From Acidobacteriota bacterium (lineage in GTDB: Bacteria; Acidobacteriota; Terriglobia; 2-12-FULL-54-10): a stretch of DNA of 64,000 nucleotides. Both the position numbers and the translations under genes were made by a program. Below the pieces are notes generated by a model. The model saw only the letters and a program-made list of their open reading frames with translations, did not search any database and was not told where the DNA came from. Where the stretch lies: assembly GCA_016191085.1 (NCBI GenBank), contig JACPPJ010000031.1, positions 261-64,260 on the forward strand. The letters are read 5' to 3'. Shown here piece after piece: positions 6,101 to 39,228 of the stretch. Every line of letters starts with the position of its first letter. The stretch's first letter is position 1.

Positions 6101-6222
6101 GCGTTTTTTCGCCCAACTATCAGAACTACCTTTTTTTACGCCCACGAGAAACCGGCGCGGACGGCGCACCGTCCAACTTCAATAGTTACTTGAATTAACC
6201 GCCGCTTCGGCCAAGAGGTCCT

Positions 6223-7620
6223 ATGCTCCGACTGTTACGCTTCTCTTCCGCGAGTGCACTCGTGTTGGTACTCAGCTCACTCCTTGGCGTGGGCACGTGG
6301 GTATCGCTGACCGGCAACACCCTACCCGCTGTCATGTACCGCGCGCCTTTGCCGCCTACAGGGTCTCCGCAACTGGTTTCTGTTGGGCTGCTGCCGCAGG
6401 CCCAAACCGAGGGCGAGATGTGCGAGTGGGTTCCGGCCAGCAGCCAGGAGCGGCTCGTGGCTATACCGCAGGAGAGGATGGCACGGACATCCACCGCAGC
6501 GGCCGAAGAAACCGGCCGAACCGCCGTATTGATAGAGCGCGCGCCACAACGAGTCATCAAGGATCCGTATCCGACCTACAGCGCGGTAGCGCTGGACCCC
6601 ATTTCGCGTGAAGTCGTTTTGCAAGACGAGAATCTGTTCCAGATCGTGACGTTCGATCAGAACGCCAACACTCCTCCAACGGCAAACTTCACCGAGCCCA
6701 AGCGCATCATCGGCGGCCACAACACGAAAATCGAATTCAACTGCGCGCTCTACGTTGATCCAAAGAACGGAGACATTTACTCCGTCAACAATGACACGCT
6801 GGACACGCTGGTCATCTTTGACCGCTCTGTCAGAGGAGACCAACCGCCCACACGCGAGCTCCGCACGCCCCATCGCACCTACGGAATTGCCGTCGATGAA
6901 GGGCAGAATGAGATGTACCTTACCGTGCAGGACCCGCCCATGGTGGTGATCTACGACAAGAACGCGATAGGCAACGACAAGCCGAAGAGAGTGATTCGCG
7001 GCAACAAAACCCGCCTGCAAGATGCGCACGGAATCGCGCTTAACAAGAAGGGCGGCTTGATATACGTGGCCAATTATGGAAACTACGCCCAGTACAGAGA
7101 CGGCGGCGGCAACAACCTGCCTGGGCGCAGCGATGACGACATGATCCGGGGCAGCGGCAAGTTTGCACCGCCGTCGATTGCCGTTTTCAAAATCGATGCC
7201 ATGGGCGACACGGCTCCCATCGGCCTGATCCAAGGGCCAAAGACAATGCTCAATTGGCCCGCTCACCTGTTCTATGATGAACAGCACCAGGAGCTTTTCG
7301 TGGCCAATGACGGAGACCATTCGGTGTTGGTCTTCCGGTCCATGGATACCGGGGACGTCGCTCCTACTCGTTTCATCAAAGGACCAAAGAGTCAGATAAA
7401 GAATCCGACGGGCGTGGCGGTGGATTCGAAAACGGACGAGCTGTTCGTCTCTAATATGGGCAACCATTCAGCCACCGTTTACAAGCGCACCGCGTCGGGC
7501 GATGTGCCGCCGATCCGAACCATCCGCAGCGCGCCCTCAGGTGCACCCGCTCTCCAGATCGGCAATCCCGGTGCGGTAGCATACGACACCAAACGCGACC
7601 AAATACTGGTTCCCAACTGA
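6223..7620 (+). CDS. Secreted beta-propeller repeat protein (NHL/YncE/lactonase-like blades), N-terminal part; ends at an in-frame TGA (locus A)
   Basis: It has a signal/anchor N-terminus and repeated blades of the form PxRxIxGxxTxLxxPxGxAxDxxxxELxVxNxxxxSxxVF. It is paralogous to 30424..31875 and 32049..33416. Confidence 0.8.
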   Translation: MLRLLRFSSASALVLVLSSLLGVGTWVSLTGNTLPAVMYRAPLPPTGSPQLVSVGLLPQAQTEGEMCEWVPASSQERLVAIPQERMARTSTAAAEETGRTAVLIERAPQRVIKDPYPTYSAVALDPISREVVLQDENLFQIVTFDQNANTPPTANFTEPKRIIGGHNTKIEFNCALYVDPKNGDIYSVNNDTLDTLVIFDRSVRGDQPPTRELRTPHRTYGIAVDEGQNEMYLTVQDPPMVVIYDKNAIGNDKPKRVIRGNKTRLQDAHGIALNKKGGLIYVANYGNYAQYRDGGGNNLPGRSDDDMIRGSGKFAPPSIAVFKIDAMGDTAPIGLIQGPKTMLNWPAHLFYDEQHQELFVANDGDHSVLVFRSMDTGDVAPTRFIKGPKSQIKNPTGVAVDSKTDELFVSNMGNHSATVYKRTASGDVPPIRTIRSAPSGAPALQIGNPGAVAYDTKRDQILVPN

Positions 7621-7641
7621 GTAGCTCACCCGCAGATTGCG

Positions 7642-7665
7642 GCCTTCGCCAGGATGGCGAAAGGC
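7642..7665 (+). promoter_or_regulatory. Candidate recoding (SECIS-like) hairpin 3' of the TGA at 7618-7620
   Basis: Sequence gcc-ttcgcca-GGA-tggcgaa-a-ggc: 10 bp with a 1-nt bulge and apical GGA, with the loop 31 nt after the TGA. Equivalent hairpins sit at the same offset in the two paralogs. Confidence 0.4.
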
Positions 7666-8475
7666 GGAGATGCTCCCCAGCGCGTGATATTCGGCCAGGC
7701 TACCAACCTCAGCCGAACCATGCATGACATCCGCTACAGCGCCAAGCGCGATGAGATCTATGTGACCAATCCGTTCGGACAAGCGGTCTTAGCGTTCCGC
7801 GGCACCGCAAGCGCCAACGAGGCGCCGATCCGCGTCATCCAAGGACCCAAAACGCAGCTCGGCAGCGAGGATACCCTGGAGATCGATGATATACACGATG
7901 AGATCCTGATTCCCACCGAGGATCGGATCCTGGTTTATCCAATTGATGCGAACGGCGACATCGCGCCGCTGCGCGTCATCAAGCCGGAGAACAATTACTG
8001 GAGAACTGGCGGCGGCATCGCTGTGGATCCTATCCACAACGTATTAGTGACCGACGGAACACTGCCCGGAGAGGAAACCATTGCCAGCGGACGCGCTGCG
8101 CGCGCCAATCGCCGCGATAGTATTCTGATCTTCGACCGCACCGCAAACGGCGAGGTCAAGCCGCTGCGTGTCATCCGAGGGCCTCGGACCGGCATCAAAG
8201 CGATACGCCAGATGCAGATCTATCCGAAGAACGGGTATATCGTGATCGCGCAGATAACCGATGGCGCTATCGCGGAGCCGGAGGGGACGTTTGTCGGTGT
8301 CTGGAGCATTAACGACAGCGGAGATGTCCCGCCGCGCTGGAAGATTGAAGGCAAGCCTGGCAATGGTATGAAGAAACCGCGTGGCGTCGCATTGAACCCA
8401 AAGCACAAGGAATTAATCGTCTCCGATATGCGACTCAACTCCGTCCTGACGTACTATTTCCCGGAGATGTTCTAA
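7654..8475 (+). CDS. Beta-propeller repeat protein, C-terminal part (locus A); conserved coding sequence actually begins at 7621, right after the TGA
   Basis: The ORF-track ATG is at 7654. The 33 nt upstream (VAHPQIAAFAR) are in frame and conserved in the paralogs. The blades continue through to the C-terminal YYFPEMF. Confidence 0.8.
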   Translation: MAKGGDAPQRVIFGQATNLSRTMHDIRYSAKRDEIYVTNPFGQAVLAFRGTASANEAPIRVIQGPKTQLGSEDTLEIDDIHDEILIPTEDRILVYPIDANGDIAPLRVIKPENNYWRTGGGIAVDPIHNVLVTDGTLPGEETIASGRAARANRRDSILIFDRTANGEVKPLRVIRGPRTGIKAIRQMQIYPKNGYIVIAQITDGAIAEPEGTFVGVWSINDSGDVPPRWKIEGKPGNGMKKPRGVALNPKHKELIVSDMRLNSVLTYYFPEMF

Positions 8476-8526: not shown

Positions 8527-10758
8527 TTAGAGGGACGGCGCCGATTTCGATGGCGGGGCTTTGTGGATGCGTTCCACGTCGCGCACTCCTTGGATCTTCC
8601 GCATAGCGGTTATGAGGCGCTCCAGGTGCTTTTTATCCTCGATATCTAATGTCAACGCAATGGTGGCATCGCCGCCGCTCCCTACTTTGGTTTCAATCTT
8701 TCGAATGTTCGTCTTCTCGGAGATGGCCGCCGTCAATTCTTTTAGCAAACCGGGACGGTCTTTGGTGCGTATAGCAAGCTGCACCGCGTAAGCCTCTTCG
8801 CCGGAGGCCCACTCGACCTCGATCCTCCGCTCCACCTCGTAAAGCAGGCTCTGTACGTTTGGGCAGGTCTTGGAATGCACGGCCACGCCTTTGCCGCGCG
8901 TGATGTATCCAACAATTTCCTCGCCGCGGATCGGCTCGCAACATCTTGCGCGATACACCAGCATGTTGCCGTAACCCTTCACCTGAATGGCACCATCTTT
9001 CGATATGCCCAGCGCCTCGCTAAAGGTTTTGGCCAGCGACCTTTTCTCTGGAACATCTTCATGAACGTTTTCGGGGAAGATTTTCGCCAGTACCTGCCGG
9101 GGAGAGATCTTGCCGAAGCCCACGGCGCAGTAAAGCTCGTCAGCTTTTGGCCACCCTAAAGAGTGCGCCGCCTTGAGCAGATCATCCGCAGGAACCTTCT
9201 TCCAAGCGACGTGGAAACGGCGGCTCTCCTTTTCGAGCAGCTTCTTTCCGAGCTCGATGGCATTGGCCTTTTCGTTAGTTGTAATCCAATGTTTGATCTT
9301 GTTTCGCGCGCGCGACGATTTGACAAACGCCAGCCAATCGCGGCTGGGGTGAGAGCCTTTCTGCGTGACGATCTCGGCGATGTCGCCGCTGCGTAGGCGA
9401 TGACGCAAGGGCACCAGCTTCCCATTCACGCGAGCGCCCGTGCAGGTGTTTCCCACTTCAGTGTGGATGGCGTATGCGAAATCCACGGTAGTGCCGTCGC
9501 GAGGTAATACGATGACTTTCCCCTTGGGTGTGAAGGTGTAAACCTCGTCCGGATACAGATCAATCTTCAGCGCAGAAAGGAATTCGGCCGGATCGGACAA
9601 CTCCTGCTGCCATTCGATCAACTGCCGCAACCAGGCCATGCTCTTTTCGTCGGCGGGCGATGAAGGGCCGCCCTCCTTGTATTTCCAATGCGCCGCGATG
9701 CCTTCCTCAGCGGTGCGGTGCATCTCTTTGGTCCGGATCTGGACCTCGAACGGCTGGCCGTTGCTGCCGATGACGGTTGTGTGCAGCGATTGATACAGGT
9801 TGGGCCGCGGCATGGCGATGAAGTCCTTGATGCGACCCGGTATGGGAGGCCACAAATGATGAATGACACCAAGCGCCGCATAGCAGTCATTCACGCTCTC
9901 CGTGATGATGCGCACGGCGAGCAGATCGTAGACCTGGTTCATCTCCGACCTTTGTCGCTTCATCTTTTGATAAATGCTATACAGCCGCTTGATGCGCCAA
10001 TCCACCGCGGCTTGAATGGCGTTTTCTTTTAACTTCTCGTCAATGGTGGAAGAGACTTCCTTCAGGAAATCCTCACTGGCCCGGCGCTTGGCTTCCACTT
10101 CGCCCTCGATCTCCTGATACGCGATGGGGTCAATGTAAGCGAAGGCGAGGTCCTCGAGCTCACCGCGGATCTTCCCCATTCCCATGCGGTGCGCCAGAGG
10201 CGCGTACAACTCGAGCGTTTCCTGCGCGATCAGCTTTTGCTTCTCCGGAGGCAAATACTGTAACGTGCGCATGTTGTGGAGCCGGTCGGCCAGCTTGACC
10301 AGGATCACCCGCAAGTCGTCAACCATGGCAAGCAGCATCTTGCGAACGTTGTCGGCCTGGCGCTGCTCTCTGGTAGTGAAATTCAGGCGGCTGATCTTGG
10401 TGACGCCTTCTACCAGGTGCGCGATTTCCTCACCGAATTTCTCGCGCAGTTCATCAACCGTTACGCTGGTATCTTCGACAACATCGTGCAGCAATGCAGT
10501 GGCGATGGTGGATACGTCCATGCGCAGGTCGGCAAGGATATGTGCCACTTCCAGGGGATGTGTCAGATACAGCTCGCCAGAGAGACGGACCTGCGACATG
10601 TGGTAATGTGCCGAGAATTGGTAGGCATGACGGAGCAGGTCGAGGTTCTCGTTCGGCCGGTTCCGCTTAATTTTTTTCAGCAGGTCGCGAAACTTCGTCA
10701 ATGTAAGAAGATTCGTTGAGAAGGCCTGCCGAAACGATGTTGGTAACGAGGTGGACAT
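8527..10758 (-). CDS. relA: Bifunctional (p)ppGpp synthetase/hydrolase, RelA/SpoT family
   Basis: 743 aa. It has an HD domain (HPLEVAHILADL…LLHDVVEDT), a RelA_SpoT synthetase core, a TGS domain and a C-terminal ACT-like region. Confidence 0.95.
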   Translation of the reverse strand: MSTSLPTSFRQAFSTNLLTLTKFRDLLKKIKRNRPNENLDLLRHAYQFSAHYHMSQVRLSGELYLTHPLEVAHILADLRMDVSTIATALLHDVVEDTSVTVDELREKFGEEIAHLVEGVTKISRLNFTTREQRQADNVRKMLLAMVDDLRVILVKLADRLHNMRTLQYLPPEKQKLIAQETLELYAPLAHRMGMGKIRGELEDLAFAYIDPIAYQEIEGEVEAKRRASEDFLKEVSSTIDEKLKENAIQAAVDWRIKRLYSIYQKMKRQRSEMNQVYDLLAVRIITESVNDCYAALGVIHHLWPPIPGRIKDFIAMPRPNLYQSLHTTVIGSNGQPFEVQIRTKEMHRTAEEGIAAHWKYKEGGPSSPADEKSMAWLRQLIEWQQELSDPAEFLSALKIDLYPDEVYTFTPKGKVIVLPRDGTTVDFAYAIHTEVGNTCTGARVNGKLVPLRHRLRSGDIAEIVTQKGSHPSRDWLAFVKSSRARNKIKHWITTNEKANAIELGKKLLEKESRRFHVAWKKVPADDLLKAAHSLGWPKADELYCAVGFGKISPRQVLAKIFPENVHEDVPEKRSLAKTFSEALGISKDGAIQVKGYGNMLVYRARCCEPIRGEEIVGYITRGKGVAVHSKTCPNVQSLLYEVERRIEVEWASGEEAYAVQLAIRTKDRPGLLKELTAAISEKTNIRKIETKVGSGGDATIALTLDIEDKKHLERLITAMRKIQGVRDVERIHKAPPSKSAPSL

Positions 10759-10788
10759 AAATTAGAAGCGGCTACGGCCCCGCCCGCC

Positions 10789-10830
10789 CGGAAAAGAAAA
10801 AACCCTGAGAGGCACCAGCCCCTCAGGGTT
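10789..10830 (-). terminator. Rho-independent terminator after the tonB-exb-TPR operon
   Basis: On the minus strand, the aaccctgag…ctcagggtt 9-bp stem is followed by TTTTTTCTTTTCC. It lies directly downstream of the TPR gene stop at 10865. Confidence 0.55.
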
Positions 10831-10864
10831 CATTATAAGCCAGTAGCTACCGAGGAGAAGAGAC

Positions 10865-11662
10865 TTACCCCTGGAGAGTACCAGGTGCCTTGGCGGCCTT
10901 CTGCTTCTTGATCTCCAGTGTCTTGTCCATCCACGAATCAGCAGTCTTGAGGTCCGCGTCCCGCATTTCGGGCGAGTCCGCCAAGTCTGCCTTCTCGCGA
11001 TAGAGCAGGTTGAGATAAGCCATGGCATCGTCGTAATCGGGCCGCAGCTCAATGGCCTTGTTCAGCGAGTTCATGCCTTCTTCGATAAGAGGTAGGTTCC
11101 TCTCGGCGAGCGCCTGCCGCTCTTTAGCATCTTTGATGGCCTGGTCGGGTGGTATCTTCAACCGTGTCTTCAGCTCGATACGCGGTTGGTACGCCAGCGT
11201 CCAGTCGATCACTCCCACCGAGTACCAGGCTTCGGGATTGTTCGGATCCACCGCCAGCTGCCGCTTGTAATACTCTTTAGCCTCGTCCATCCGTTTCATC
11301 TGGAAGTACAGGTTCGCAATGCCGGTGATGCTGCCGACATTGTTGGGATCGTCCCGCAGGACCTCGTGAAATTCGGAGATGGCCTGCTCCGCGATCTTAA
11401 CGTTCTCTTCCTGCTCCGAACCAGGCACGTACTGATTGGCGTAAGCGGTGGCGAGATATAGCTTGGCATTCAGTAGCGTTGGATCGAGGTTTACCGCGCT
11501 TTTAAAGTGCTCAATGGCAAGCTGATATTTTCCCTCTTTATAAAACGCCACACCCTTATTCAGTTGATCTCTGGCTTGCAGTTTTGCACACCCGGAGGCG
11601 GACAGTAGCAGGCCAGCTACAATAGCGCATGCTAGCCACACGTTCTTTTTTAGTAAGTTCAT
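10865..11662 (-). CDS. TPR-repeat lipoprotein
   Basis: Lipobox signal (MNLLKKNVWLACAIVAGLLLSASGC) followed by multiple TPR-like repeats. It is the last gene of the tonB/exb operon. Confidence 0.8.
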   Translation of the reverse strand: MNLLKKNVWLACAIVAGLLLSASGCAKLQARDQLNKGVAFYKEGKYQLAIEHFKSAVNLDPTLLNAKLYLATAYANQYVPGSEQEENVKIAEQAISEFHEVLRDDPNNVGSITGIANLYFQMKRMDEAKEYYKRQLAVDPNNPEAWYSVGVIDWTLAYQPRIELKTRLKIPPDQAIKDAKERQALAERNLPLIEEGMNSLNKAIELRPDYDDAMAYLNLLYREKADLADSPEMRDADLKTADSWMDKTLEIKKQKAAKAPGTLQG

Positions 11663-11777
11663 CCTGAGACTCTCCGACTGAGAATTGCCCGTTGCGGCTG
11701 ACGGGCCTCCACAACTCAGCCGCCAGTCAGCCGTCGCTCGGCGGCTTTCGAGTGGCCACGTTCAATGGATTCCCCGC

Positions 11778-12203
11778 TTAGTTACCCTCTTCAAGTCTTT
11801 GAGTGATCAACCCGACCTTGTCTATGCCGGCGCCCTTGGCGATATCAATGACAGTGGCGACGGACGAGAACATGACGTCGGGATCACCCTTGACGAAGAT
11901 CACACGCTCGGCACGGGTTTTGAAAATATCAATCAACCTGGAGCCGAGTTGGTCAATCGTGACATCATCCTGGTTAATTTTCAGCCGGTTGTCTTTATCT
12001 ACCGAAACCACGACGGTACGGATATCCGGCTCATTTGCCTTATCTGCATTCGGATTGGGCTGGGGCACCAGCGCATCCAAACCTTTCGGGACCAAAGGGG
12101 TAATCACCATGAAGATGATCAGCAGAACCAACAAGACGTCGATGAGCGGCGTCATGTTGATATCTGAATTAACTCCCTTGTGCCCTCCGACTGCCATTGA
12201 CAT
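11778..12203 (-). CDS. exbD: Biopolymer transport protein ExbD/TolR
   Basis: 141 aa, with INMTPLIDVLLVLLIIFMV and a periplasmic domain typical of ExbD/TolR. Confidence 0.85.
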   Translation of the reverse strand: MSMAVGGHKGVNSDINMTPLIDVLLVLLIIFMVITPLVPKGLDALVPQPNPNADKANEPDIRTVVVSVDKDNRLKINQDDVTIDQLGSRLIDIFKTRAERVIFVKGDPDVMFSSVATVIDIAKGAGIDKVGLITQRLEEGN

Positions 12204-28006: not shown

Positions 28007-28648
28007 TTAGCGGCCTAGCACTACCCCGCCTAGCACTGCGACCCGGTGCCACAGTCCTGCCGGAGCGTAGATGCTGCTGGGGATGGGCGTCAGATAATCG
28101 CGCACCTCGAACTTGGTCGATATGAAAGGCAGCACTCGTTTCTCTATCCCGCCGCCGAAGGTGCCCACTGGCGCTGTGAGTGTTTCGGGAACTCCCCTCG
28201 GGAACGGGACTTCCACCTGACTTTTTACGTCCACCGAGAATCGGCTGAGGCCAACTCCACCAAAACCGTAGGCTCGAAACCCGAAGAATCGCGGCGTGTT
28301 CAGACGGGCGTCGAATGTAACGGTGTGCGACTCGAGGTCCACCAGCGCTCTCGATCCGAACGCATCGCCGCGGCGCAGATCCAGCTCCGGCGTAGAGTGG
28401 CTGTAGTGAACACCGATCCCGATGAACGGAAGAAAACCGACGCCGCCATCAACTGCGACGATGGACGCGTTTGAGAATCCGGCGCGGGTAATTCCGCCGA
28501 TTATTCCGGCGGGCGCGCTCGCGCTCAGGTCTTGCGGCAGCAGCCCGCCTCCGGAGACTGCTACAAATTGCGCGCTTGCGGCGCTAGCAAACAGCACCGA
28601 CGTAAGAATCAGGTACTGAGGTTTGAACAGGTTCGATAACAGCTTCAT
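28007..28648 (-). CDS. Outer-membrane beta-barrel protein (OmpA-barrel/OmpW-like)
   Basis: Signal peptide (…LFASAASAQF) and alternating amphipathic beta strands rich in G and aromatic residues. 213 aa. Confidence 0.6.
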   Translation of the reverse strand: MKLLSNLFKPQYLILTSVLFASAASAQFVAVSGGGLLPQDLSASAPAGIIGGITRAGFSNASIVAVDGGVGFLPFIGIGVHYSHSTPELDLRRGDAFGSRALVDLESHTVTFDARLNTPRFFGFRAYGFGGVGLSRFSVDVKSQVEVPFPRGVPETLTAPVGTFGGGIEKRVLPFISTKFEVRDYLTPIPSSIYAPAGLWHRVAVLGGVVLGR

Positions 28649-28744: not shown

Positions 28745-29587
28745 TTACGAGTGACGCTCTCGGTGGCGGACCGCTCCCTTGCGGTCGCGGCTCGGATTCA
28801 AGCGGAGCAGGTCAACGCCGTCCTGAAACTCCCGGCGCATCTCTTTGGTCCAATGATCGGTTTCGCGCAGCGGCTTGGGAATGCGATAGCCGTCGCAGCA
28901 GGCGAGTGTTAGGCGCACCCCGGTGCGCAGCGAAACGCGGTGCCCGCAGGAAACAAAGATTGGCCGCACGCCGTCGCGGGTGCGGAGCGCCGTGCCGATG
29001 ACTTCACCGCGATGTCGCAGCGGCGACGTGGAGCCTCGCGCGAAACCGGGCATTTCGTAATCGCCGATCAGGACAGATTTGGCGCAGCCGATCGCGGGAT
29101 TATCCAGCACCAAACCCAAATGGCAGGCCAGTCCGGCGCGGCGAGGATGCGCGTACCCGTGGGCGTCGGCAAGAATCAGGTCAGGACGCCGCGAGAGCTT
29201 CGCGAATGCGTGGAGCAGCAAAGGAATCTCCCGGAACGACAGCAGGCCCGGAATGTACGGGAAGCTCAGATCAGCGCAATACGAGGCGCGCTCCAACTCC
29301 TCCAGCTTCGGGAACGAGTAGACGATGACGGCGGCGAACCCGGTGTTTTCACTCAGGGCGACGTCGGCTGCCGCAACAGTGCGGACGCGCCCCAGGCGAT
29401 CGCTTCGGTTGACCATCGGCGCGATGCGCTCCTGCAACGACCGCGCCTCAGATGGAGTCACGTTGAGCTTGGCGAGTTCGTTGCGATCAACCAGCAGTGC
29501 GGATGTGATGGATTGAGTCAGATTGAAAGTCGATTTGCTGTCGGAGAGCTCCAGCCCAGGCGGGAGAGCCCTGGGCTGGAGCCACAT
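28745..29587 (-). CDS. nfi: Endonuclease V
   Basis: AADVAL…FPYIPGLLSFREIPLLL…DLILADAHGYAHPRRAGLACHLGLVLD…IGCAKS. The start lies 2 nt downstream of the locus-B propeller stop. Confidence 0.85.
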   Translation of the reverse strand: MWLQPRALPPGLELSDSKSTFNLTQSITSALLVDRNELAKLNVTPSEARSLQERIAPMVNRSDRLGRVRTVAAADVALSENTGFAAVIVYSFPKLEELERASYCADLSFPYIPGLLSFREIPLLLHAFAKLSRRPDLILADAHGYAHPRRAGLACHLGLVLDNPAIGCAKSVLIGDYEMPGFARGSTSPLRHRGEVIGTALRTRDGVRPIFVSCGHRVSLRTGVRLTLACCDGYRIPKPLRETDHWTKEMRREFQDGVDLLRLNPSRDRKGAVRHRERHS

Positions 29588-29589: not shown

Positions 29590-30423
29590 TCAGAATATCT
29601 CCGGGAAGTGATACGTCATTACGGCATTGACGTATTTATCCGAGACAATTACTTCCTTAGTCTTTGGCACCACCGTGATGCCGCGCACCTGCCGCAGCAT
29701 CTGGTTCGGGCCTCCTATCATCCACCGCGGTGGAACGTCGCCGTTGTCGGTTTCACTCCACACGCCAACCCAGTTGTTGGGAGACGATTTCTCCCGGCTG
29801 GGCATTCCGGCCAGAATCATCTTTGTCGGCGGGTAGACGGTGATCAGGGCTGTGAGCAGGATCTTGCTTTTGGGACCGAAGATCTGCGCCTTGGGCTTGA
29901 CGTTGCCGTTGTCCGTCCGGTTGAAGATGAGAATGTGGCCGTTTCTGCCGCTCTCTACGGCGCGCTCGTCTCCCTTCCGGGGTCGCTGGCCCGAAGCAAT
30001 GAGCAGATTGTTGACCGGATCGACAGTCAGAGCAGTGGCGCCCAACATTGTGTCAGGCCCCTTGATGGTGCGGATCGGTTTCACATTGCCCTCAGCGTCA
30101 CTGGGAAAAACCAGGATGGTGTCCTCCAGCGGAATGAAGACCTCTTTGTGAATCGGATCGAGGGCGAGCCTCGCCGGAGTGGTCATCTGCGTATCGGGAC
30201 CCATGATGATGCGGATCGGCTTCTCGTCTCCGTTCGCACCGCCGCGGTAGGTCATGATCGCCTGGGCATAGAACTGCGGGATGACGATCTCATCCGTGAT
30301 GGGGTTGTAGGCCATGTCGTGGATCGTGCGGGTGATCGCCGAATTCTGACCTGCGATTGAACGGGTGGGCTTGGCATTTCCGTTCGCCAACCTGGCGAAT
30401 GCCGCGATCTGCGGATGAGCCAC
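29590..30423 (-). CDS. Beta-propeller repeat protein, C-terminal part (locus B); begins at the GTG directly abutting the upstream TGA
   Basis: It starts (V)AHPQIAAFARLANGNAKPTRSI…, is collinear with 7621..8475 and 33417..34223, and ends …YHFPEIF. Confidence 0.8.
   Translation of the reverse strand: MAHPQIAAFARLANGNAKPTRSIAGQNSAITRTIHDMAYNPITDEIVIPQFYAQAIMTYRGGANGDEKPIRIIMGPDTQMTTPARLALDPIHKEVFIPLEDTILVFPSDAEGNVKPIRTIKGPDTMLGATALTVDPVNNLLIASGQRPRKGDERAVESGRNGHILIFNRTDNGNVKPKAQIFGPKSKILLTALITVYPPTKMILAGMPSREKSSPNNWVGVWSETDNGDVPPRWMIGGPNQMLRQVRGITVVPKTKEVIVSDKYVNAVMTYHFPEIF
30373..30403 (-). promoter_or_regulatory. Candidate recoding (SECIS-like) hairpin 3' of the TGA at 30424-30426 (minus strand)
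   Basis: The minus-sense RNA reads ggcat-ttcgcca-GGU-tggcgaa-cggaa-atgcc: a 7-bp upper stem, a 5-bp lower stem and an apical GGU. Confidence 0.4.
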
Positions 30424-31875
30424 TCAGTTGGCGACGAGCAACTCGTCGCGCTTGCTGTCCCAGGTCAGCGTGTGCGGATTGCCCATCATGGGAGCCGGAG
30501 CCTCGATGGGCCCGCTGCGGATGACGCGCAGCGGCGGTGCATCGCCGGAAGCGCCCAGCTTGTACACGGTTGCCGTGTGGTTGCCGAAGTTGGCCACCCA
30601 GAGCTCCTGATTCTTCAGGTCAGCGAAAACGCTGGTCGGATTCTTGATCAACGTCTTGGGTCCCTTCAGGACACGGATCGGAGCCACATCGCCGTTCGCA
30701 TCAGCCTTGAACACCAGCACCGAATCCACCGGATCGTTCGCCACATACAACTCGCCGCGTTCATGATCAATGCTGAGCGCGGTGGGCCAGTTGAGCTGTG
30801 TGCGCGGTCCCTGGATGACCCGGATCGGCGGGGTATCCCAGCTAGCGTCGCGTGGATACACCGTAATGGAAGGCGGCATGAACTTGCCGGAGCCTGGCAC
30901 TGCATCGTTGCGGCCAACCGGCCAGTTGTCTCTGCCGATGCCGCGATTCAGCGTACCGCTGTACTTGCCGGATGCGGGCCGTTTGTGGACGTTTACCGAA
31001 CCCCAGTTGCTGACGTAAATCTGGTCCGTCTTGGGATTATATGCAATGCCATGGGGATCAGCCATGAGAGTACGCGGACCTTGCAGCGTACGAATGGGCG
31101 AGTCCTTACCCGTCGCCGTCTTTTTGAACGTCACCACGGCGGCATCGTCCTGGACGGTCAGCATCAACTCCTGCGTCCTCTCGTCCACCGCGACTCCAAA
31201 CGTGGCCATCGGCGTATTGAGATAGCGCGCCGGCTTAGCGTTGCCGTTTGCGCCGTGGGGAAACACAGCCATCTTGCCGAGCGTATCGTTATTCACGGCG
31301 TAGATGTCGCCGTTGGCGGGGTCGATATAGAGAGAGCATTGGAACTCGATCTCGGTATCCTCGCCGTGGATCATGCGCTTGGGCTCGCTCAGCTTGGCAT
31401 TGGGCGGAGTGTTCTCGAGGCGGTCATAAGCGACGATGCGAAACTTGTTCTCATCCGTCATGAGCACTTCATTGTGGATGGGGTCAACCGCAACGGCGCT
31501 GAAGGCACCCCAGGGGTCATTGATGACTCGGATCGGTTTCCGTCGTGACGCGGCGAGCTTTTCTGCTTCGGTCACATCCGCGGCGGGCGGCGCAAATTGC
31601 TGCTGGAATGAAGCGAACAATGACGAGTTGGCGGCGCTGGCCGGTTCCCACTCGCACCTTTCACCATCGGCTTGCGGCAGCGGCTCAACCGAAACTAATT
31701 GTGGCTGTCCTGTGGCCTTTTGTGCTGGTCTCAATTGACCGCCCGCGCCCCAGAGTACAACCGTAGCAATGAGCGCGAGGAGAGCTAATATGCCGAGTCC
31801 GCCCGCCCTGTTTCGAAACAAACGTACACGCGCCATTCGTATTCCTCCTTTAATCCCAGCCGCTCCGCTATTCAA
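30424..31875 (-). CDS. Secreted beta-propeller repeat protein, N-terminal part; ends at an in-frame TGA (locus B)
   Basis: 483 aa with a signal/anchor, the conserved QPQLVSVEPLPQADGERCEWEPAS segment and seven blade-like repeats. It ends …DSKRDELLVAN-TGA. Confidence 0.8.
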   Translation of the reverse strand: MNSGAAGIKGGIRMARVRLFRNRAGGLGILALLALIATVVLWGAGGQLRPAQKATGQPQLVSVEPLPQADGERCEWEPASAANSSLFASFQQQFAPPAADVTEAEKLAASRRKPIRVINDPWGAFSAVAVDPIHNEVLMTDENKFRIVAYDRLENTPPNAKLSEPKRMIHGEDTEIEFQCSLYIDPANGDIYAVNNDTLGKMAVFPHGANGNAKPARYLNTPMATFGVAVDERTQELMLTVQDDAAVVTFKKTATGKDSPIRTLQGPRTLMADPHGIAYNPKTDQIYVSNWGSVNVHKRPASGKYSGTLNRGIGRDNWPVGRNDAVPGSGKFMPPSITVYPRDASWDTPPIRVIQGPRTQLNWPTALSIDHERGELYVANDPVDSVLVFKADANGDVAPIRVLKGPKTLIKNPTSVFADLKNQELWVANFGNHTATVYKLGASGDAPPLRVIRSGPIEAPAPMMGNPHTLTWDSKRDELLVAN

Positions 31876-32048
31876 TGCTCCGTAAAAGACCTTCCCCGTT
31901 GGCCGCCATTATACATCAGGGCTGCGGCCGGTTCCGGAATTTGACGCTTGAACTCCATAAACTCGTAACAGTTCGCAGGGACAGATCGTCTATCGTATAG
32001 TAGCTGAGTTAAGCGTGTGCTCATTGCGGCGCTACGGAGGTTTGTTAT

Positions 32049-33416
32049 ATGCATTGCAATTCGTCTGGAAAGGCTCTTCTGACCATCGTCGCGGTTCTAA
32101 TCGCAACGGGCGGCTTGTGTCTGGTATCCGGAACTCAATTTCAATTCGGCAAAGACCGCCCCAACGGCCAGCCGCGATTGATTGCGATTGATCCGCTGCC
32201 GCAAGCCGACGGTGAGGTTTGTGAGTGGCAACCGGCGAGCTTCAGCGCGCCGCAGGGGCAGGCCGGCACATCCTCTCCCTCATCTGCAGCAGACGAGGCG
32301 AAGAAGTCGGAGGTGGAGAAGCGCAAACCAATCAGGACCATTCGCGACCCTTACGCGGCATACAGTTCCGTGGCAGTGGATCCCGTCCACAATGAGGTGG
32401 TGCTGACGGATGAGAACCTTTTCAACATTCTAGTTTACGACCGCCTGGCGAATACTCCTCCTAACGCCAAAATGACCGAGCCCAAACGCATGATCGGAGG
32501 GCTGAATACCAAAATTGAGTTTCAGTGCGGGCTCTACATCGACCCGACGAACGGCGATATTTTCGCAGTGAACAACGACACGGTGGACACGTTGGTCATC
32601 TTCAACCGGCAGGCCAAGGGCAATGTGCCGCCTACGCGCGAGCTGTACACTCCACATGGAACGTTCGGTATCGCCGTTGACGAGCAGGCTCAGGAAATGT
32701 ACTTGACGGTGCAGCACGACAGCGCGGTGGTGGTATACAAGAAGTACGCTACGAAAAATGACTCGCCTCTGCGCCTGTTGCAGGGCGACAATACCATGCT
32801 GGCAGACCCGCACGGCATCGCCGTTGATCCGAGGACCAATGTGATCTTCGTGGCCAATCACGGCGCGACTCACTCGGTGGATGGGAAACTGAGCGAACAC
32901 ACAAGGCGGCCGAATTTCCCCTTGGAGCGAGCGTTTGCCGTGCCCGGATCGGGCCGCAGCCTGCCTCCTTCCATCACCGTGTACGAAAAGAACGCGTCGG
33001 GCGACACCGCTCCGATACGCGTGATCTCCGGTCCGAACACACGAATGAATTGGCCCTCCGGCCTGGCCGTGGATTCTGATCGCGGCGAGCTTTACGTTGC
33101 AAACGATATGGATGATTCGATCCTGGTCTTCGACATCACTGCCGAAGGCGACGCGGCGCCGAAGCGCGTACTGAAGGGGCCGGCAACCATGCTCAAGAAT
33201 CCTACTGGCGTGTTCCTCGATACGAAGAACGACGAGCTGTGGTCCGCGAATTTCGGGAATCACACCGCGACAGTGTTCAAGCGGACGGCATCCGGCAACA
33301 CACCGCCGTTGCGCGTGATCCGCAGCGGACCTACCAACGAGCCATCGCTCGGCATCGGCAACCCGCACCCGATTGCGTACGACAGCAAGCGCGAGGAGAT
33401 TCTGGTTCCCAACTGA
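32049..33416 (+). CDS. Secreted beta-propeller repeat protein, N-terminal part; ends at an in-frame TGA (locus C)
   Basis: 455 aa with a signal/anchor, the QPRLIAIDPLPQADGEVCEWQPAS segment and blade repeats. It ends …DSKREEILVPN-TGA. It is transcribed divergently from locus B. Confidence 0.8.
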   Translation: MHCNSSGKALLTIVAVLIATGGLCLVSGTQFQFGKDRPNGQPRLIAIDPLPQADGEVCEWQPASFSAPQGQAGTSSPSSAADEAKKSEVEKRKPIRTIRDPYAAYSSVAVDPVHNEVVLTDENLFNILVYDRLANTPPNAKMTEPKRMIGGLNTKIEFQCGLYIDPTNGDIFAVNNDTVDTLVIFNRQAKGNVPPTRELYTPHGTFGIAVDEQAQEMYLTVQHDSAVVVYKKYATKNDSPLRLLQGDNTMLADPHGIAVDPRTNVIFVANHGATHSVDGKLSEHTRRPNFPLERAFAVPGSGRSLPPSITVYEKNASGDTAPIRVISGPNTRMNWPSGLAVDSDRGELYVANDMDDSILVFDITAEGDAAPKRVLKGPATMLKNPTGVFLDTKNDELWSANFGNHTATVFKRTASGNTPPLRVIRSGPTNEPSLGIGNPHPIAYDSKREEILVPN

Positions 33417-34223
33417 GTGGCGCACCCGCAGATCGCGGTCTTCGCCAGGATGGCGGATGGAAACGCGGCGCCCACTCGAAAGATTGAAGGACAGAAAACT
33501 CTCCTCGGACGCACCATGCACGCGATCGCCTACGATGAGGTTCACGATGAGTTCATGGTCCCGCAACAGTTCGCCCAGGCAATTCTGACTTTCCGCGGCG
33601 CGGCAAGGGGCGAAGAGGCTCCGGTGCGCGTCATTCAAGGCTCTAAAACCCAGCTTGTCTCCCTGGACCGGCTGGCCTACGACCCCGTGCATGGAGAAAT
33701 CTTCGTGCCCGAAGGTGAAAAGGTACTGGTGTTTCCGCGCGCCGCCAACGGCAACGTTGCTCCCGTGCGCGTGCTGGGCGGCAAGGGCTCCTCATTACGC
33801 GCCAGCGCTGCTGCCGTGGACACAGTGCGTAATCTGCTGGTCGTGATGGGAGGCGAGCGAAACGATCCGCGGTTTGAGATTTACAACCGCACCGATGAAG
33901 GCAACGCTAAGCCCCTGCGTGTGATTGGCGGCCCCAAGAGCGGGTTCCGCCAACTGGGCGGCCCATTTGCCGTGTATCCGCCGAAGGGCTGGATCATCGC
34001 TTCGGATCGCGGACACGGAGAGCTGGTTTCCGACATAGCGTACGTGGGCGTCTGGAGTGTGGAAGACAACGGCGATGTGCCGCCCCGCTGGAGGTTCGGC
34101 GGACCGAACGGAGTGTTGAAGATGCCCCGCGGTATAACCCTTGATCCCAAGAACAAGAACGTCCTTGTCAGCGATAAGCGTCTGAATGCGGTGATGACTT
34201 TCGCCTTCCCAGAGCTGTTTTAG
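33417..34223 (+). CDS. Beta-propeller repeat protein, C-terminal part (locus C)
   Basis: It starts at the GTG immediately after the TGA, reading (V)AHPQIAVFARMADGNAAPTRKI…, and ends …FAFPELF. Confidence 0.8.
   Translation: MAHPQIAVFARMADGNAAPTRKIEGQKTLLGRTMHAIAYDEVHDEFMVPQQFAQAILTFRGAARGEEAPVRVIQGSKTQLVSLDRLAYDPVHGEIFVPEGEKVLVFPRAANGNVAPVRVLGGKGSSLRASAAAVDTVRNLLVVMGGERNDPRFEIYNRTDEGNAKPLRVIGGPKSGFRQLGGPFAVYPPKGWIIASDRGHGELVSDIAYVGVWSVEDNGDVPPRWRFGGPNGVLKMPRGITLDPKNKNVLVSDKRLNAVMTFAFPELF
33435..33466 (+). promoter_or_regulatory. Candidate recoding (SECIS-like) hairpin 3' of the TGA at 33414-33416
   Basis: Sequence gcg-gtc-ttcgcca-GGA-tggcgga-tggaaa-cgc: a 7-bp upper stem including one G-U pair, an apical GGA and a short lower stem. 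Confidence 0.35.
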
Positions 34224-35095: not shown

Positions 35096-36559
35096 TTGGA
35101 GGCTCGTTTCGTGTTAACCTTTCTGCCATCCCGCTCCCACCTGGATTCCTTCTATCATTTGGATGCGGATCCTGTCCCGACAGCCTGTCGCGGTCTGGCT
35201 TGCTTTGTCGCGCGACACCTGAATGCGCCGGCATGGCGGGAAGCGACGGCCCACAGCGAGCGCGTATACTGCCTGGGCAAGTGTTATGCGGCCCCGGCAT
35301 GCACGGACGAGGATCAGCGCCCCCGCGTCGAGGTGCACGCATCCACACCGGTGCTTCTAGGCCGCGTGCTTGGCGGAGGCGCTCCCGGTATTGACCGCTA
35401 TATAAAACGCCAGGGTTATCGAGCGCTCGAGCTGGCGTTGCGGCAGTCTCCTGAGCACTTAATTCAGACTATTTCCGAATCGGGTCTGCGAGGGCGCGGC
35501 GGCGCCGGGGTCCCCACCGGTCGCAAGTGGGATGCCGTTTTTCGCGAGCGATCAAACGAGAAGTTCGTGATCGCCAATGCCGATGAAGGCGATCCAGGCG
35601 CGTTCATGGAGCGCGTTCTGCTGGAAGAGGACCCGCACTCGTTGATCGAAGCGATGGTGATTGCCGGATTCGCGGTAAACGCCGCCCGGGGAATCATTTA
35701 TCTCCGCAAAGAATATCCGCGAGCGGCAGTCATGCTGCGCGAAGCCATCCAGGATGCACGGAGAAAAGGGATTCTCGGCTCGAACATCCTGGGCAGGCGG
35801 TTTTGCTTCGACGTGGAACTCGCAATCGGGCGCGGCAGCTATGTCTGCGGAGAAGAATCGGCTCTGCTGAACGCGCTGGAAGGAAAGCGCCCCGAACCCA
35901 GGCAGCGCCCGCCTTATGCCAGCGAAAGCGGCCTCTATGGCAAGCCGACACTCATCAACAACGTGGAGACATTCGCGAACGTCCCCTGGATTATTCTCAA
36001 CGGGGCCGACGCGTACAGCAGGCTGGGGTGTTCGACCAGCAAAGGGACCAAGTTGATCTCGCTGAACTCGCTGTTCCGGCGGCCCGGGCTGTACGAAGTG
36101 GAATTCGGCGTGACCGTCCGGCACGTAGTAGAACAGATCGGCGGCGGCCTCGCGGGCGAGTTGAAAGGTGTGATTATCGGAGGGCCGCTGGCGGGAATTG
36201 TTCCGCCGCACCTGCTCGACACTCCATTCGCGTTCGAGGAGTTGCGCTTGATCGGCGCCAGCGTGGGCCACGGCGGCATCGTAGCTTTCGACGAACACAC
36301 CAGCATTCGCGAGCTGATCCATCATATGTTCGAGTTTGGCGCTTATGAATCATGCGGCAAATGCACGCCGTGCCGCGTAGGCACGCGCCGCATAGAAAAG
36401 CTGTTCGCTCGCGCCTGGTTCAACGAAGCAGAAGACGCCGAGTGGCGCGAGATCGTTCGCGCGATGTCCCTAACCAGTTTCTGCGGAATGGGGACGGGGC
36501 TCGCCGAATTCGCGCAGAGCGCGATTCGTTATTATGCCGAGGAGCTTGCATTATGCTGA
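35096..36559 (+). CDS. NuoF-like NAD(H)-binding flavoprotein subunit (formate dehydrogenase beta / NuoE-F fusion type)
   Basis: GLRGRGGAGVPTGRKW, ANADEGDPGAFMER and a C-terminal 4Fe-4S motif ESCGKCTPCR. The N-terminus carries C-x4-C … C-x3-C, resembling a NuoE-type 2Fe-2S motif. Confidence 0.85.
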   Translation: MEARFVLTFLPSRSHLDSFYHLDADPVPTACRGLACFVARHLNAPAWREATAHSERVYCLGKCYAAPACTDEDQRPRVEVHASTPVLLGRVLGGGAPGIDRYIKRQGYRALELALRQSPEHLIQTISESGLRGRGGAGVPTGRKWDAVFRERSNEKFVIANADEGDPGAFMERVLLEEDPHSLIEAMVIAGFAVNAARGIIYLRKEYPRAAVMLREAIQDARRKGILGSNILGRRFCFDVELAIGRGSYVCGEESALLNALEGKRPEPRQRPPYASESGLYGKPTLINNVETFANVPWIILNGADAYSRLGCSTSKGTKLISLNSLFRRPGLYEVEFGVTVRHVVEQIGGGLAGELKGVIIGGPLAGIVPPHLLDTPFAFEELRLIGASVGHGGIVAFDEHTSIRELIHHMFEFGAYESCGKCTPCRVGTRRIEKLFARAWFNEAEDAEWREIVRAMSLTSFCGMGTGLAEFAQSAIRYYAEELALC

Positions 36560-39228
36560 GCGTGACAATCAACGGCATACAATGCAGGTGTCCCGAGGGC
36601 GTCAGCATTCTGGACGCTCTGAACTTGCTGAATATTAAGATGCCGTCGCTCTGCCATGATGACCGGCTGGAACCGTACGGCGGCTGCCGGTTATGTATAG
36701 TGCAGGTGAAGGGACACGATCGCCCCGTGCCTGCGTGCAGCACGCCGCTTGCCGAGGAGATGGAGATCGAAACGCATAGCGCGGAGATCAAAGAGCTCCG
36801 CCGGACGCTGCTGAAGCTGTTGGCGCATTCGTACCCCGCCGAGGCTGTGAAGGCGTTCCCCGATAAACCGTTCCATCGGTATCTGAAGAGCTATGGTGTG
36901 GAGGACGCTTGTGTTCACGGCTATTACCCCACGCTTGCGGACGAATCGCATCCATACATTCGTGTGGATATGTCGCGGTGCATGTATTGCCAGCGCTGCG
37001 TACGCATATGCCGGGAAGTACAAGGACAGTTTGTGTGGCAGGTGTGGGATCGAGCAGACGCCACCAGGATATTGCCCGACTCGGGCACCAATCTCGCCGA
37101 AAGCTCCTGCGTGGCCTGTGGCGCTTGCGCCGATACTTGTCCAACGGGTGCCCTGGAAGACAAGACACTTCTCTTGAGCGGCTCGGCATTGGCGGGCACG
37201 AGCACGACGTGCCCCTATTGCGGCGTGGGATGCGAGATGGAAGTGCGCACGCGCGGCAGCCGCATCGTAGCAATCAAGCCAGTGGTCAGCGCCCCGGTGA
37301 ATCGCGGGCACTTGTGCGTGAAGGGAAGGTACGCCTTTGAATTTGTGCACTCGCCAGACCGGATCACCGAACCGATGATCCGGCGCAACGGCGAATGGAA
37401 GCCTGTATCGTGGGAGTACGCCATTCATACTGTGGCCGAGGCGCTCCGCGAAAGCATCCAGCGCGAAGGTCCTCAAAGTACCGCGATTCTGGCTTCGGCG
37501 CGGGCAACGAATGAGGAGAACTACCTGACTCAGAAATTTGCGCGCGTGGTGCTGGGCACCAACAACGTGGATTGCTGTGCGCGGGTCTGTCACGCTCCAA
37601 CGGCTACCGCGATGAAGGCGATGCTTGGGACAGGCGCGGCTACCAACTCGTTTAATGATATCGAGCGGGCGCGGACGATTCTTGTATGCGGCGCAAACCC
37701 GACCAGCAACCATCCCGTGATCGGCGCGCGCATCAAGCAGGCGGTGCTGAAGGGCACCAGCCTGATCGTCATTGATCCGCGGCGGATCGAACTGGCCGAC
37801 TACGCCGACCATCACCTGCAAGTTCGGCCGGGCACCAACGTTCCGCTCCTGAACGCCATCGCTCACACCATTGTTGAAGAGAGCCTCTTCGACAGAGAAT
37901 TCATGCGGGAGCGTGTCTCGGATTGGGAGAGCTTCGCGCGGTTTATCCAGAACTTCGCGCCGGAAAAAGTGGCGACCGTTTGCGGTGTGAACGCTCAGTG
38001 CATCCGTGAGGCGGCACGCCTATATGCCACGGAAAAGCCCAGCATGATCATCCACGGGCTGGGCGTCACGGAACACACTCAGGGTAGCGAAGGCGTGATG
38101 CTGCTCGTCAATCTCGCTCTGCTTACCGGGAACGTCGGTAAGCGCGGCGGGGGTGTGATGCCGCTGCGCGGCCAGAACAACGTCCAGGGCGCTGCTCACA
38201 TGGGCTGCGATCCCGGGAGCCTTACGGGCGCAGTCGCTTTTGACGACGGCAAAGCCTTGTTTGAAGACGCATGGAGCACGTCGCTTCCTTCAACACCCGG
38301 TCTGAATTTGCTGCAAATGATGGATGCGGCTGCTGAAGGCAAGCTGAAGACGCTGTGGGCCATTGGATTTGACGTATTTCTCACGAACCCGCAGGCGCAC
38401 GCGACGTCCAGGGCGCTCTGGGAAATGGACTGCGTAGTCGTTCAGGATATGTTCCTGAACGAAACGGCGCGCGAATTCGGTTCGGTGTTCCTGCCGGCGG
38501 TATCATCGTTCGAAAAGGACGGTACATTCATGAACGCCGAACGCCGCGTCCAGAGGGTGCGGCAGGTGATTGAACCCCTTGGGCAAGCGAAAGCAGATTG
38601 GGAAATCTTATGCCTGGTGGCGCGCGCTATGGGTAAAGCCAACTTGTTTCCGTATACCAGCGCCGAGCAGATCTGGAATGAGATTCGGACAGTATGGAAG
38701 GCGGGCGCGGGTATCTCCTATGGCCGGCTGGAACAGGGCGGTTTGCAGTGGCCCTGCCCCGATGAAACGCATCCCGGCACAGAGATCCTGCACACCCAAT
38801 GCAGCTCTCCAAAAACGATAGCGCTCCGCGAAGTGCAATATCGTCCCACTCCTGAGAGAGTGGCGAAGGACTTTCCATTTCTGCTGATAACGGGTAGAGC
38901 GGCGTATCAGTTCAATGCCGGGACCATGTCGTCGCGCACACCCAACGTGGAACTCTGGCCAACGGATGTTCTGGAGATGGCGGCAGCCGATGCGCAACGG
39001 CTAGGCGTACGCAGCGGCGAACGGGTTCGCATCCGAAGCCGCTTCGGAGAGGCCGAACTGCCGCTGCAGATCAGCCCTGCCCTTCGCCCTGGCGAGTTGT
39101 TCACCACCTTTCACTCTCCGCAGGTCTTCTTGAACCACGTTACCAGCCCCTACCGCGACACGTTCTCCGACACTCCCGAGTACAAAGTCACTGCCGTCAC
39201 GGTCGAAAAAGTCAGCGATTCCGCATAA
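36553..39228 (+). CDS. fdhA: Formate dehydrogenase alpha subunit (molybdopterin, NuoG-like N-terminus), cysteine type
   Basis: The ATG at 36553 overlaps the upstream stop (ATGCTGA). The N-terminal 2Fe-2S/4Fe-4S cysteine clusters and a molybdopterin oxidoreductase core are present. The active-site segment is CCARVCHAPTA, with TGT at 37588-37590. Confidence 0.9.
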   Translation: MLSVTINGIQCRCPEGVSILDALNLLNIKMPSLCHDDRLEPYGGCRLCIVQVKGHDRPVPACSTPLAEEMEIETHSAEIKELRRTLLKLLAHSYPAEAVKAFPDKPFHRYLKSYGVEDACVHGYYPTLADESHPYIRVDMSRCMYCQRCVRICREVQGQFVWQVWDRADATRILPDSGTNLAESSCVACGACADTCPTGALEDKTLLLSGSALAGTSTTCPYCGVGCEMEVRTRGSRIVAIKPVVSAPVNRGHLCVKGRYAFEFVHSPDRITEPMIRRNGEWKPVSWEYAIHTVAEALRESIQREGPQSTAILASARATNEENYLTQKFARVVLGTNNVDCCARVCHAPTATAMKAMLGTGAATNSFNDIERARTILVCGANPTSNHPVIGARIKQAVLKGTSLIVIDPRRIELADYADHHLQVRPGTNVPLLNAIAHTIVEESLFDREFMRERVSDWESFARFIQNFAPEKVATVCGVNAQCIREAARLYATEKPSMIIHGLGVTEHTQGSEGVMLLVNLALLTGNVGKRGGGVMPLRGQNNVQGAAHMGCDPGSLTGAVAFDDGKALFEDAWSTSLPSTPGLNLLQMMDAAAEGKLKTLWAIGFDVFLTNPQAHATSRALWEMDCVVVQDMFLNETAREFGSVFLPAVSSFEKDGTFMNAERRVQRVRQVIEPLGQAKADWEILCLVARAMGKANLFPYTSAEQIWNEIRTVWKAGAGISYGRLEQGGLQWPCPDETHPGTEILHTQCSSPKTIALREVQYRPTPERVAKDFPFLLITGRAAYQFNAGTMSSRTPNVELWPTDVLEMAAADAQRLGVRSGERVRIRSRFGEAELPLQISPALRPGELFTTFHSPQVFLNHVTSPYRDTFSDTPEYKVTAVTVEKVSDSA

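Follow-up and report, generated by a model that had tools for sequence, protein, structure and literature searches.

An in-frame TGA in a family of acidobacterial beta-propeller genes is predicted to encode selenocysteine

What does a TGA codon do in the middle of an otherwise uninterrupted gene? The question is raised by locus B, on the minus strand of a 64,000-nt stretch of an Acidobacteriota genome (assembly GCA_016191085.1, contig JACPPJ010000031.1; this whole stretch is hereinafter the window), where two open reading frames (ORFs), 30424..31875 and 29590..30423, lie in one frame with only the TGA at 30424-30426 between them. An initial annotation of the window had described the two ORFs as contiguous, had placed the TGA in the same alignment column in two paralogues (loci A and C) and had argued that it is functional rather than a recent nonsense mutation, suggesting orthologues, selenocysteine (Sec) machinery and substitution rates around the TGA as informative comparisons. 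The window sequence bears out the layout, and the functional TGA is supported by a Sec/Cys alignment column, by the substitution rates and by a downstream hairpin. From these sequence comparisons, the TGA is almost certainly decoded as Sec, and locus B is very probably a single intact gene, its product an exported tandem beta-propeller selenoprotein of ~748 residues.

The junction in locus B reads ...DSKRDELLVAN-TGA-VAHPQIAAFARLA..., with GTG-GCT-CAT-CCG-CAG-ATC-GCG directly after the TGA. Counted from TTG 31875, the fused frame spans 483+1+277 = 761 codons, as initially annotated. A downstream ATG at 31836, preceded by AAAGGAGGAA, gives 748 codons and is the likely start because GGAGG (31844-31848) precedes it; the length of 761 codons thus holds for the frame and probably not for the protein. 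The parts of locus B are as follows.

29590..31836, minus strand: the full predicted selenoprotein gene (locus B), 748 codons plus stop, encoding a putative exported tandem beta-propeller; a single frame with one internal TGA, an ATG with a Shine-Dalgarno (SD) sequence, and full-length Cys homologues that align over 94-100% of it
31844..31848, minus strand: Shine-Dalgarno GGAGG, 7 nt 5' of ATG 31836, in the context AAAGGAGGAATACGAATG
31738..31800, minus strand: hydrophobic N-terminal signal or membrane anchor, residues ~13-33 (GGLGILALLALIATVVLWGAGG), read from the sequence and suggesting export
31654..31656, minus strand: Cys61 codon, in the motif G-x-x-C-E-W-x-P-A-S of the N-terminal arm, at least 90% conserved in the alignment; candidate resolving partner of Sec
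30424..30426, minus strand: in-frame TGA, read as U471 in N-U-V-A-H-P, aligned with an invariant Cys in 33/33 full-length homologues
30402..30414, minus strand: proximal mini-hairpin CCGC-AGAUC-GCGG, spanning positions 13-25 (numbered, like all hairpin positions below, from the T of TGA as 1), with invariant wobble positions
30381..30401, minus strand: putative Sec insertion sequence (SECIS) hairpin, 8-bp stem (30394-30401 with 30381-30388) and apical loop A-GGU-U (30389-30393), identified by pairing, covariation and minimum free energy (MFE)

A protein search with the fused locus B product, in which U was replaced by C, returned 2720 matches in two classes, one of ~470 aa, which stops at the TGA column and spans 63% of the query, and one of 720-795 aa, which spans 87-100% of it. 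Every full-length homologue inspected (33/33) carries Cys at the TGA column, in the context [NS]-C-V-[AGH]-[HRQ]-P, so the orthologue comparison yields a Sec/Cys pair. In the alignment of homologues this Cys, V472, P475, H262, H420 and H506 are invariant, and H474, like the N-terminal Cys61, is at least 90% conserved. An exhaustive search with the exact C-terminal half recovered 184 representative clusters at E<=1e-30, many of them stand-alone ~270-aa proteins that start exactly at the TGA column, down to ~40% identity. DNA of two divergent C-terminal halves, retrieved without any nucleotide pattern, has TGA in both (...ILAPN-TGA-VSQPRIS... in L133 and ...ILAFQ-TGA-VTFPQIA... in L134), followed by hairpins with compensatory changes.

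We scanned metagenome contigs with a 26-nt degenerate DNA pattern for N-TGA-V-A-H-P-Q-I-A and found at least 120 matching stretches, mostly in soil and sediment samples. The chance expectation is an estimated ~1 match or fewer, assuming roughly 10^12 bases, and the recurrence of the TGA context is far beyond chance. The copy counts used here (e.g. 118, 119, 122, 126) rest on the matches listed. In 126 related copies spanning 40-79% identity the Sec column is TGA, and never TAA or TAG; among the genome loci listed, TGA is present in 4/5 (Terriglobia, Solibacteraceae, Ca. Sulfopaludibacter).

Bacterial SECIS elements are modelled as hairpins with a loop of 3-9 nt, an upper stem of 4-16 bp and an MFE <= -7.5 kcal/mol, in which a G within the first two loop positions is followed by G or U and the loop lies 16-37 nt from the UGA (PMC13188914). 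The propeller-gene hairpin has an 8-bp stem and a UGA-to-loop spacing of 30 nt, the loop starting at position 34; the loop is AGGUU (5 nt), or GGU (3 nt) if A and U are taken as a closing pair. Its G position and MFE likewise agree with the model. In 118 distinct metagenomic copies the hairpin begins 23 nt 3' of the TGA, positions 26-33 pair with 39-46, and the apical loop is A-G-G-N-U in 111/118; the stem falls outside the 26-nt search pattern. Predicted MFE is <= -7.5 kcal/mol in 114/119 copies, with a mean of -10.6.

The stem pairs in 95% of cases in register, compared with 35-62% when partner columns are shifted. By a formal count, 95.9% of cells are paired versus 91.1+/-0.4 in shuffles (0/500 reach it) and 37-58% with slid partner columns, and 85 cells are changed on both sides versus 29 in shuffles (0/500). 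Such two-sided changes are seen in 4/8 stem pairs, with a covariation score of 0.209 versus 0.123 in shuffles (0/500). Pair 27-45, both columns of which are codon third positions, occurs as AU (29 copies), GC (24), CG (22) and UA (11). At pair 30-42, C-G (104 copies) gives way to U-A (12 copies) through a synonymous Phe change from UUC to UUU coupled with an Ala change from GCG to GCA, and at pair 31-41 two copies exchange G-C for C-G, which turns Ala...Ala into Pro...Gly with pairing kept. Wobble positions 15, 24, 33 and 39 are invariant (15 and 24 in 118/118 copies), whereas other wobble positions are free to vary, and 113/118 copies use AGG for the Arg of the loop. Positions 15 and 24 belong to the proximal mini-hairpin, which pairs 13-16 with 22-25; the divergent L133 swaps its C16-G22 pair for A-U, and the L133 apical loop, G-G-U-U-C, replaces the loop-closing A-U with G-C around a GUU triloop. 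One Sec-form copy, L082 (match 3595-3620, minus strand), lacks 1 nt of the SECIS loop (CCAGGTGGCAAA), a deletion that also shifts the frame; it is either a pseudogene or an assembly error.

Copies with Cys at the same column serve as a natural control, eight of which were recovered. In three of the eight the peptide F-A/S-R-L/T-A-D is identical or almost so, yet it is spelled with other codons (GCG/TCG, CGG/CGC, CTT/CTC/ACG, GCT) and the hairpin is lost, its MFE collapsing to -1.5 to -4.9 kcal/mol. In two others (L126 and L129; genes 10001-12202 each) the Sec column is TGT or TGC and the hairpin is retained, with 8/8 and 7/8 pairs and MFEs of -8.1 and -8.4 kcal/mol, suggesting a recent Sec-Cys conversion that left a fossil SECIS. 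One contig, L131, carries a Cys-form and a Sec-form paralogue at 4676-6919 (plus strand) and 9424-11586 (minus strand), so the two forms coexist in one genome.

The Sec machinery was sought with E. coli SelA, SelB and SelD as probes over ~650 kb around related copies. Three loci gave matches, and their propeller proteins share 42-61% identity with A, B and C. In L009, selA and selD are transcribed divergently, and the propeller gene begins 54 nt past the selD stop; in L028, selA (Pfam SelA, E=2e-155) and the propeller gene are the divergent pair, with selD after the propeller gene; and in L027, selD is followed by a minus-strand AhpC/TSA-DsbD_N gene and then by the propeller gene. The selD genes of L009 (3418-~4450, minus strand) and L028 (~4200-4895, plus strand) themselves have an in-frame TGA at the catalytic Cys17 (...AAG-U-AAK..., a UxxK motif), from which those organisms are predicted to decode Sec. 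Candidate SECIS loops in these two selD genes lie ~34-39 nt from the UGA, a spacing that we liken to that of the propeller genes. The AhpC/TSA-DsbD_N gene of L027 (~1037-2200, minus strand) also has an in-frame TGA (...ADW-U-PYC...) and belongs to a known selenoprotein type, Prx-like UxxC; with selD and the propeller gene it appears, from its sequence, to form a small selenoprotein island. In these relatives, the machinery found beside the propeller gene is selA and/or a Sec-containing selD.

The two paralogues in the window are arranged as follows.

6223..8475, plus strand: paralogue A, with its putative Sec-TGA at 7618-7620, a next codon GTA (non-start) and a SECIS hairpin at 7643-7663
32049..34223, plus strand: paralogue C, divergent from B, with its putative Sec-TGA at 33414-33416 and a SECIS hairpin at 33439-33459

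Each has exactly one in-frame TGA, in the same context as in B, N-TGA-V-A-H-P-Q-I-A, and the hairpin MFEs are -8.7 (B), -9.1 (A) and -8.4 (C) kcal/mol. Among the three genes the ratio of nonsynonymous to synonymous substitution rates (dN/dS) is 0.25-0.48 in the 40 codons 5' of the TGA and 0.25-0.38 in the 40 codons 3' of it, values that point to purifying selection on both flanks; the initial annotation had taken a downstream ratio near 1 as the mark of an untranslated segment, and none is seen. A metagenomic dN/dS for codons 1-8 (0.07) was set aside as circular, the residues being fixed by the search pattern, and the paralogue comparison was used instead. Two more Sec-form paralogues that end early, HYX72_02205 and HYX72_03945, are found on other contigs under the same locus-tag prefix, and with the three copies in the window they bring the source metagenome-assembled genome (MAG) to at least five TGA copies. 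A common 212-bp intergenic region (31837-32048), from which B and C are transcribed divergently, has a single weak sigma-70-like site at 31972-32001 on the plus strand.

Three other readings of the TGA have to be set against Sec decoding. Translation might stop at the UGA and re-initiate at an overlapping GUG (UGAGUG), the two polypeptides then assembling as a propeller pair. The codon after the TGA is GTG in 106/122 copies, and gene callers and NCBI do annotate two ORFs (e.g. P0001, at 470 aa); the N-terminal half from the window is deposited as the 470-aa 'hypothetical protein HYX72_07170 [Acidobacteria bacterium]'. Yet the same codon is GTC, GTA or GTT in 16/122 copies, including GTA in locus A, and no copy among the 122 listed has an SD-like motif before it (0/122), so that the independent GTG initiation with its own SD that the initial annotation had raised against its own view was not found. 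The homologues, moreover, have both halves joined in one chain, Cys filling the TGA column; the Val (V472, invariant) is just the conserved residue after Cys/Sec, and two separate genes would leave no role for the covarying hairpin, the selA/selD adjacency or the Sec-containing SelD. We consider this arrangement very improbable.

That the copies are pseudogenes inactivated by a nonsense mutation is suggested by an in-frame stop dividing a gene that is intact in many relatives, and is rendered practically negligible by the recurrence of TGA, never TAA or TAG, at one column across the 126 listed copies despite their divergence, by dN/dS well below 1 on both sides and by the number of copies, three in the window and at least two more Sec forms in the rest of the MAG. 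The UGA might instead be read as a standard amino acid, either by genome-wide reassignment (to Trp or Gly) or by SECIS-independent near-cognate read-through (as Cys or Trp), which would supply the read-through that is needed and agrees with Cys as the homologous residue. The code is not reassigned, since TGA is the terminator of 11/32 window genes, and only one column is affected; the downstream hairpin fits a SelB-dependent model, and the adjacent selA and the Sec-containing SelD point specifically to Sec. To this reading, too, we give very little credence. Several observations nevertheless count against Sec decoding as well. The 26-nt pattern fixes codons 1-7 after the TGA, making their conservation partly circular; the 64,000-nt window holds no tRNA detected by ARAGORN, no Rfam match and no sel gene; neither selB (E. 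coli SelB probe) nor tRNA-Sec (ARAGORN) was found in the ~650 kb of related neighbourhoods; and the case for Sec in the propeller genes is made here from sequence.

If the TGA is decoded in this way, the ribosome would pause at the UGA while SelB-GTP-Sec-tRNA(Sec) docks on the hairpin, whose A-GGU-U loop caps the 8-bp stem 30 nt from the UGA; Sec would be inserted and translation would run on into the C-terminal half. The product matches Pfam NHL (PF01436; 33.5 bits versus a cut-off of 20) and Lactonase (PF10282; 24.0 versus 21.7), one short stretch each. Pfam SBP56 (PF05694) is not among the locus B protein matches at E up to 1, and in NCBIfam the best match reaches 28.9 bits versus a cut-off of 370, with no model for a propeller selenoprotein. 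As a proxy we used an AlphaFold2 model of the closest full-length Cys homologue, P0004 (predicted local distance difference test score 85.9, predicted template modelling score 0.83), which predicts an N-terminal helix (residues 10-26), a disordered arm to ~residue 91 and an all-beta body of ~12 four-stranded blades. The Cys/Sec residue lies between blade-7 strands 474-479 and 486-490 in this model, and blade topology would place it on the face that bears the conserved His residues. Sec471 would sit in the blade-7 loop that follows the second strand, where two halves of roughly six blades each meet.

We tentatively propose that the protein is an extracytoplasmic thiol/selenol redox enzyme, a reading that is possible and still rather doubtful, in which Sec471 would act as the catalytic nucleophile, form a selenylsulfide with Cys61 of the flexible arm and be recycled by periplasmic thioredoxin-like proteins. 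It is favoured because of the arm Cys, the Thioredoxin_7 + TPR neighbours and the Prx-like selenoprotein neighbour in L027. The arm motif G-x-M-C-[Q/E]-W-x-P-A-S has its Cys in 58/62 complete Sec forms, which otherwise have few cysteines, and an exported Thioredoxin_7 + TPR protein recurs in five neighbourhoods, in four of them directly downstream on the same strand. In L011, a Thioredoxin_7/DsbH-like (WCALC) + TPR gene directly follows the propeller gene and overlaps its stop by 4 nt. Clustering of 242 flanking ORFs revealed no conserved operon. Against the functional proposal stand the low confidence of the N-terminal arm in the P0004 model, the presence of the Thioredoxin_7 + TPR gene in only 5/126 neighbourhoods, the replacement of the His at +3 by Phe or Gln in some Sec forms and the outcome of structural searches: Foldseek against the PDB returned only generic tandem propellers (TM 0.23-0.30) with no functional lead, a PDB profile search gave only repeat-level NHL/YWTD matches (SOQ1 and NHLRC2 NHL repeats, E ~1e-3 to 1e-4), and neither yielded a characterised homologue.

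Sec471 could alternatively be a metal ligand (e.g. for Cu) together with the invariant His262, His420 and His506, instead of a redox nucleophile paired with Cys61. Three invariant His and the U-x-x-H arrangement of most members would suit such a site, and Cu-dependent propeller enzymes exist, an example being SELENBP1/methanethiol oxidase (PMC10362175). Directly 5' of one Cys-form gene, L128 8130-10004 (plus strand) encodes cytochrome c, PCuAC, SCO1/SenC and a 162-aa protein, and a second Cys-form locus, L130, has an HMBD + RND efflux pump upstream, so that copper may be linked to some of the Cys forms; metal context is nonetheless confined to 2/7 Cys-form loci and 0 Sec-form neighbourhoods, the +3 His is not kept in all Sec forms, and there is no Pfam match to SBP56 or any metal-site family. 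A metal ligand thus seems unlikely, and the copper-chaperone context (PCuAC, SCO1), which occurs at one Cys-form locus only, was not made the main hypothesis. Going further than the proposed redox enzyme, one may speculate, with little expectation of being right, that these proteins are the first beta-propeller selenoenzymes, an ancient multi-copy extracytoplasmic family in which Sec and His262/His420/His506 would make up a new catalytic centre, possibly of selenium-metal (Se-Cu) type, acting on an external substrate and not through a thioredoxin-type pair. If so, the family would make soil Terriglobia major selenium users.

Locus B is followed on its own strand by the gene for endonuclease V.

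28745..29587, minus strand: nfi (endonuclease V), with its ATG at 29587, 2 nt past the locus B stop (29590-29592); Pfam Endonuclease_5 PF04493, E=1e-66

The initial annotation had noted the 2-nt spacing and taken nfi to be probably co-transcribed with the propeller gene. The spacing is correct, and co-transcription is plausible in that no terminator-like site was found between locus B and nfi. The pairing itself appears incidental, as nfi stands beside the propeller gene at 0 of the other 134 related loci, and a functional link between the two was rejected on that ground. Just downstream of nfi, the ORF 28007-28648 (minus strand) encodes 213 aa with a signal-like N-terminus; like the ORF 4527-5606 (minus strand), it has no Pfam match. 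Two tandem DUF7790 genes (E ~1e-35 each) lie at 784-3263 (plus strand), 5' of a metallophosphatase gene, and are unrelated to the propeller finding. Elsewhere in the window, further ORF pairs that share a frame across a TGA (e.g. at 25522 and 36346) were judged to be ordinary adjacent or overlapping ORFs. A NAD-type formate dehydrogenase pair, Nuo51-like and Fer2/Fer4/molybdopterin alpha subunit, is encoded at 35096-36559 and 36352-39228 (both plus strand); given the ~200-nt overlap of these ORFs, one of the starts has probably been misplaced. Its FdhA-like alpha subunit has Cys (VCHAP) where the selenoprotein FdhA has UHxP, and the genome hence appears to use Sec for the propeller family and not for this formate dehydrogenase.

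The propeller family is a new one: the recoding mechanism is ordinary, and family, fold, habitat and copy number are new. Among the 119 prokaryotic selenoprotein families and subfamilies catalogued in May 2026, none is entered as a propeller, NHL or lactonase protein, and PF01436, PF10282, PF08450, COG3391 and the motif N-U-V-A-H-P are absent (PMC13188914 Table 1). No propeller selenoprotein family appears in deep-Sep 2025 (PMC12013277) or a 2022 review, nor did further full-text searches turn one up. Acidobacteria were credited with 3 selenoprotein families in a 2006 survey (PMC1794560); most characterised prokaryotic selenoproteins have a thioredoxin-like fold, and the large metagenomic surveys drawn on were marine (PMC13188914).

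To the known selenoproteins the family adds a large exported non-thioredoxin fold, the soil phylum Acidobacteriota and several paralogues per genome, and estimates of the selenium demand of soils would be revised by it. Recognizing it would also correct a systematic mis-annotation, each gene being now split into two "hypothetical proteins", and flags an uncharacterised enzyme family whose active site is marked by the invariant Cys/Sec. The natural Sec/Cys series, including the Cys forms with a fossil SECIS, should be useful for asking why and how Sec and Cys interconvert.

The archetype of a bacterial selenoprotein gene with an intragenic SECIS is E. coli fdhF. The propeller genes resemble that type and the bSECIS model (Zhang and Gladyshev, via PMC13188914) in having an in-frame UGA aligned to Cys, a hairpin inside the ORF just 3' of it with a small apical loop bearing G-[G/U] 16-37 nt from the UGA, and selA/selD linkage in some genomes. 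They differ from fdhF in that their protein is unrelated to FdhA, in a further conserved mini-hairpin, which comes after the UGA and before the SECIS stem, and in their predicted product, a 12-blade tandem propeller that is neither a molybdopterin nor a thioredoxin-fold protein. The nearest proteins are the Cys homologues, to which databases give the name 'beta-propeller fold lactonase family protein' or 'DNA-binding beta-propeller fold protein YncE' (COG3391; PF01436, PF10282); they are 43-58% identical over the full length and share the architecture, the invariant C/U-V-x-x-P, the His residues and the N-terminal-arm Cys; they have Cys for Sec and mostly no hairpin, and their names are automatic transfers with no characterised member behind them.

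As in the thioredoxin-fold selenoproteins (Prx-like UxxC, GPx-like, MsrA), one Sec takes the place of a conserved Cys, and a further conserved Cys could serve to resolve it, but the fold is another, the partner Cys is ~410 residues away on a disordered arm, and there is no UxxC or CxxU. Beta-propellers linked to selenium, thiol or copper chemistry are found in SELENBP1/SBP56 methanethiol oxidase, NHLRC2 and SOQ1; unlike the propeller family, which has no Pfam SBP56 match, SBP56 binds selenium without containing Sec, and the likeness to the NHL-thioredoxin fusions SOQ1 and NHLRC2 is at the repeat level only. A further parallel is the TonB-dependent receptor FCYXU (deep-Sep 2025, PMC12013277), likewise large, exported and rich in beta structure, whose one Sec was predicted from a Sec/Cys pair and a SECIS; that type was found in Desulfobacterota, whereas the present family has a propeller fold and occurs in soil Acidobacteriota (Terriglobia), with several paralogues per genome.

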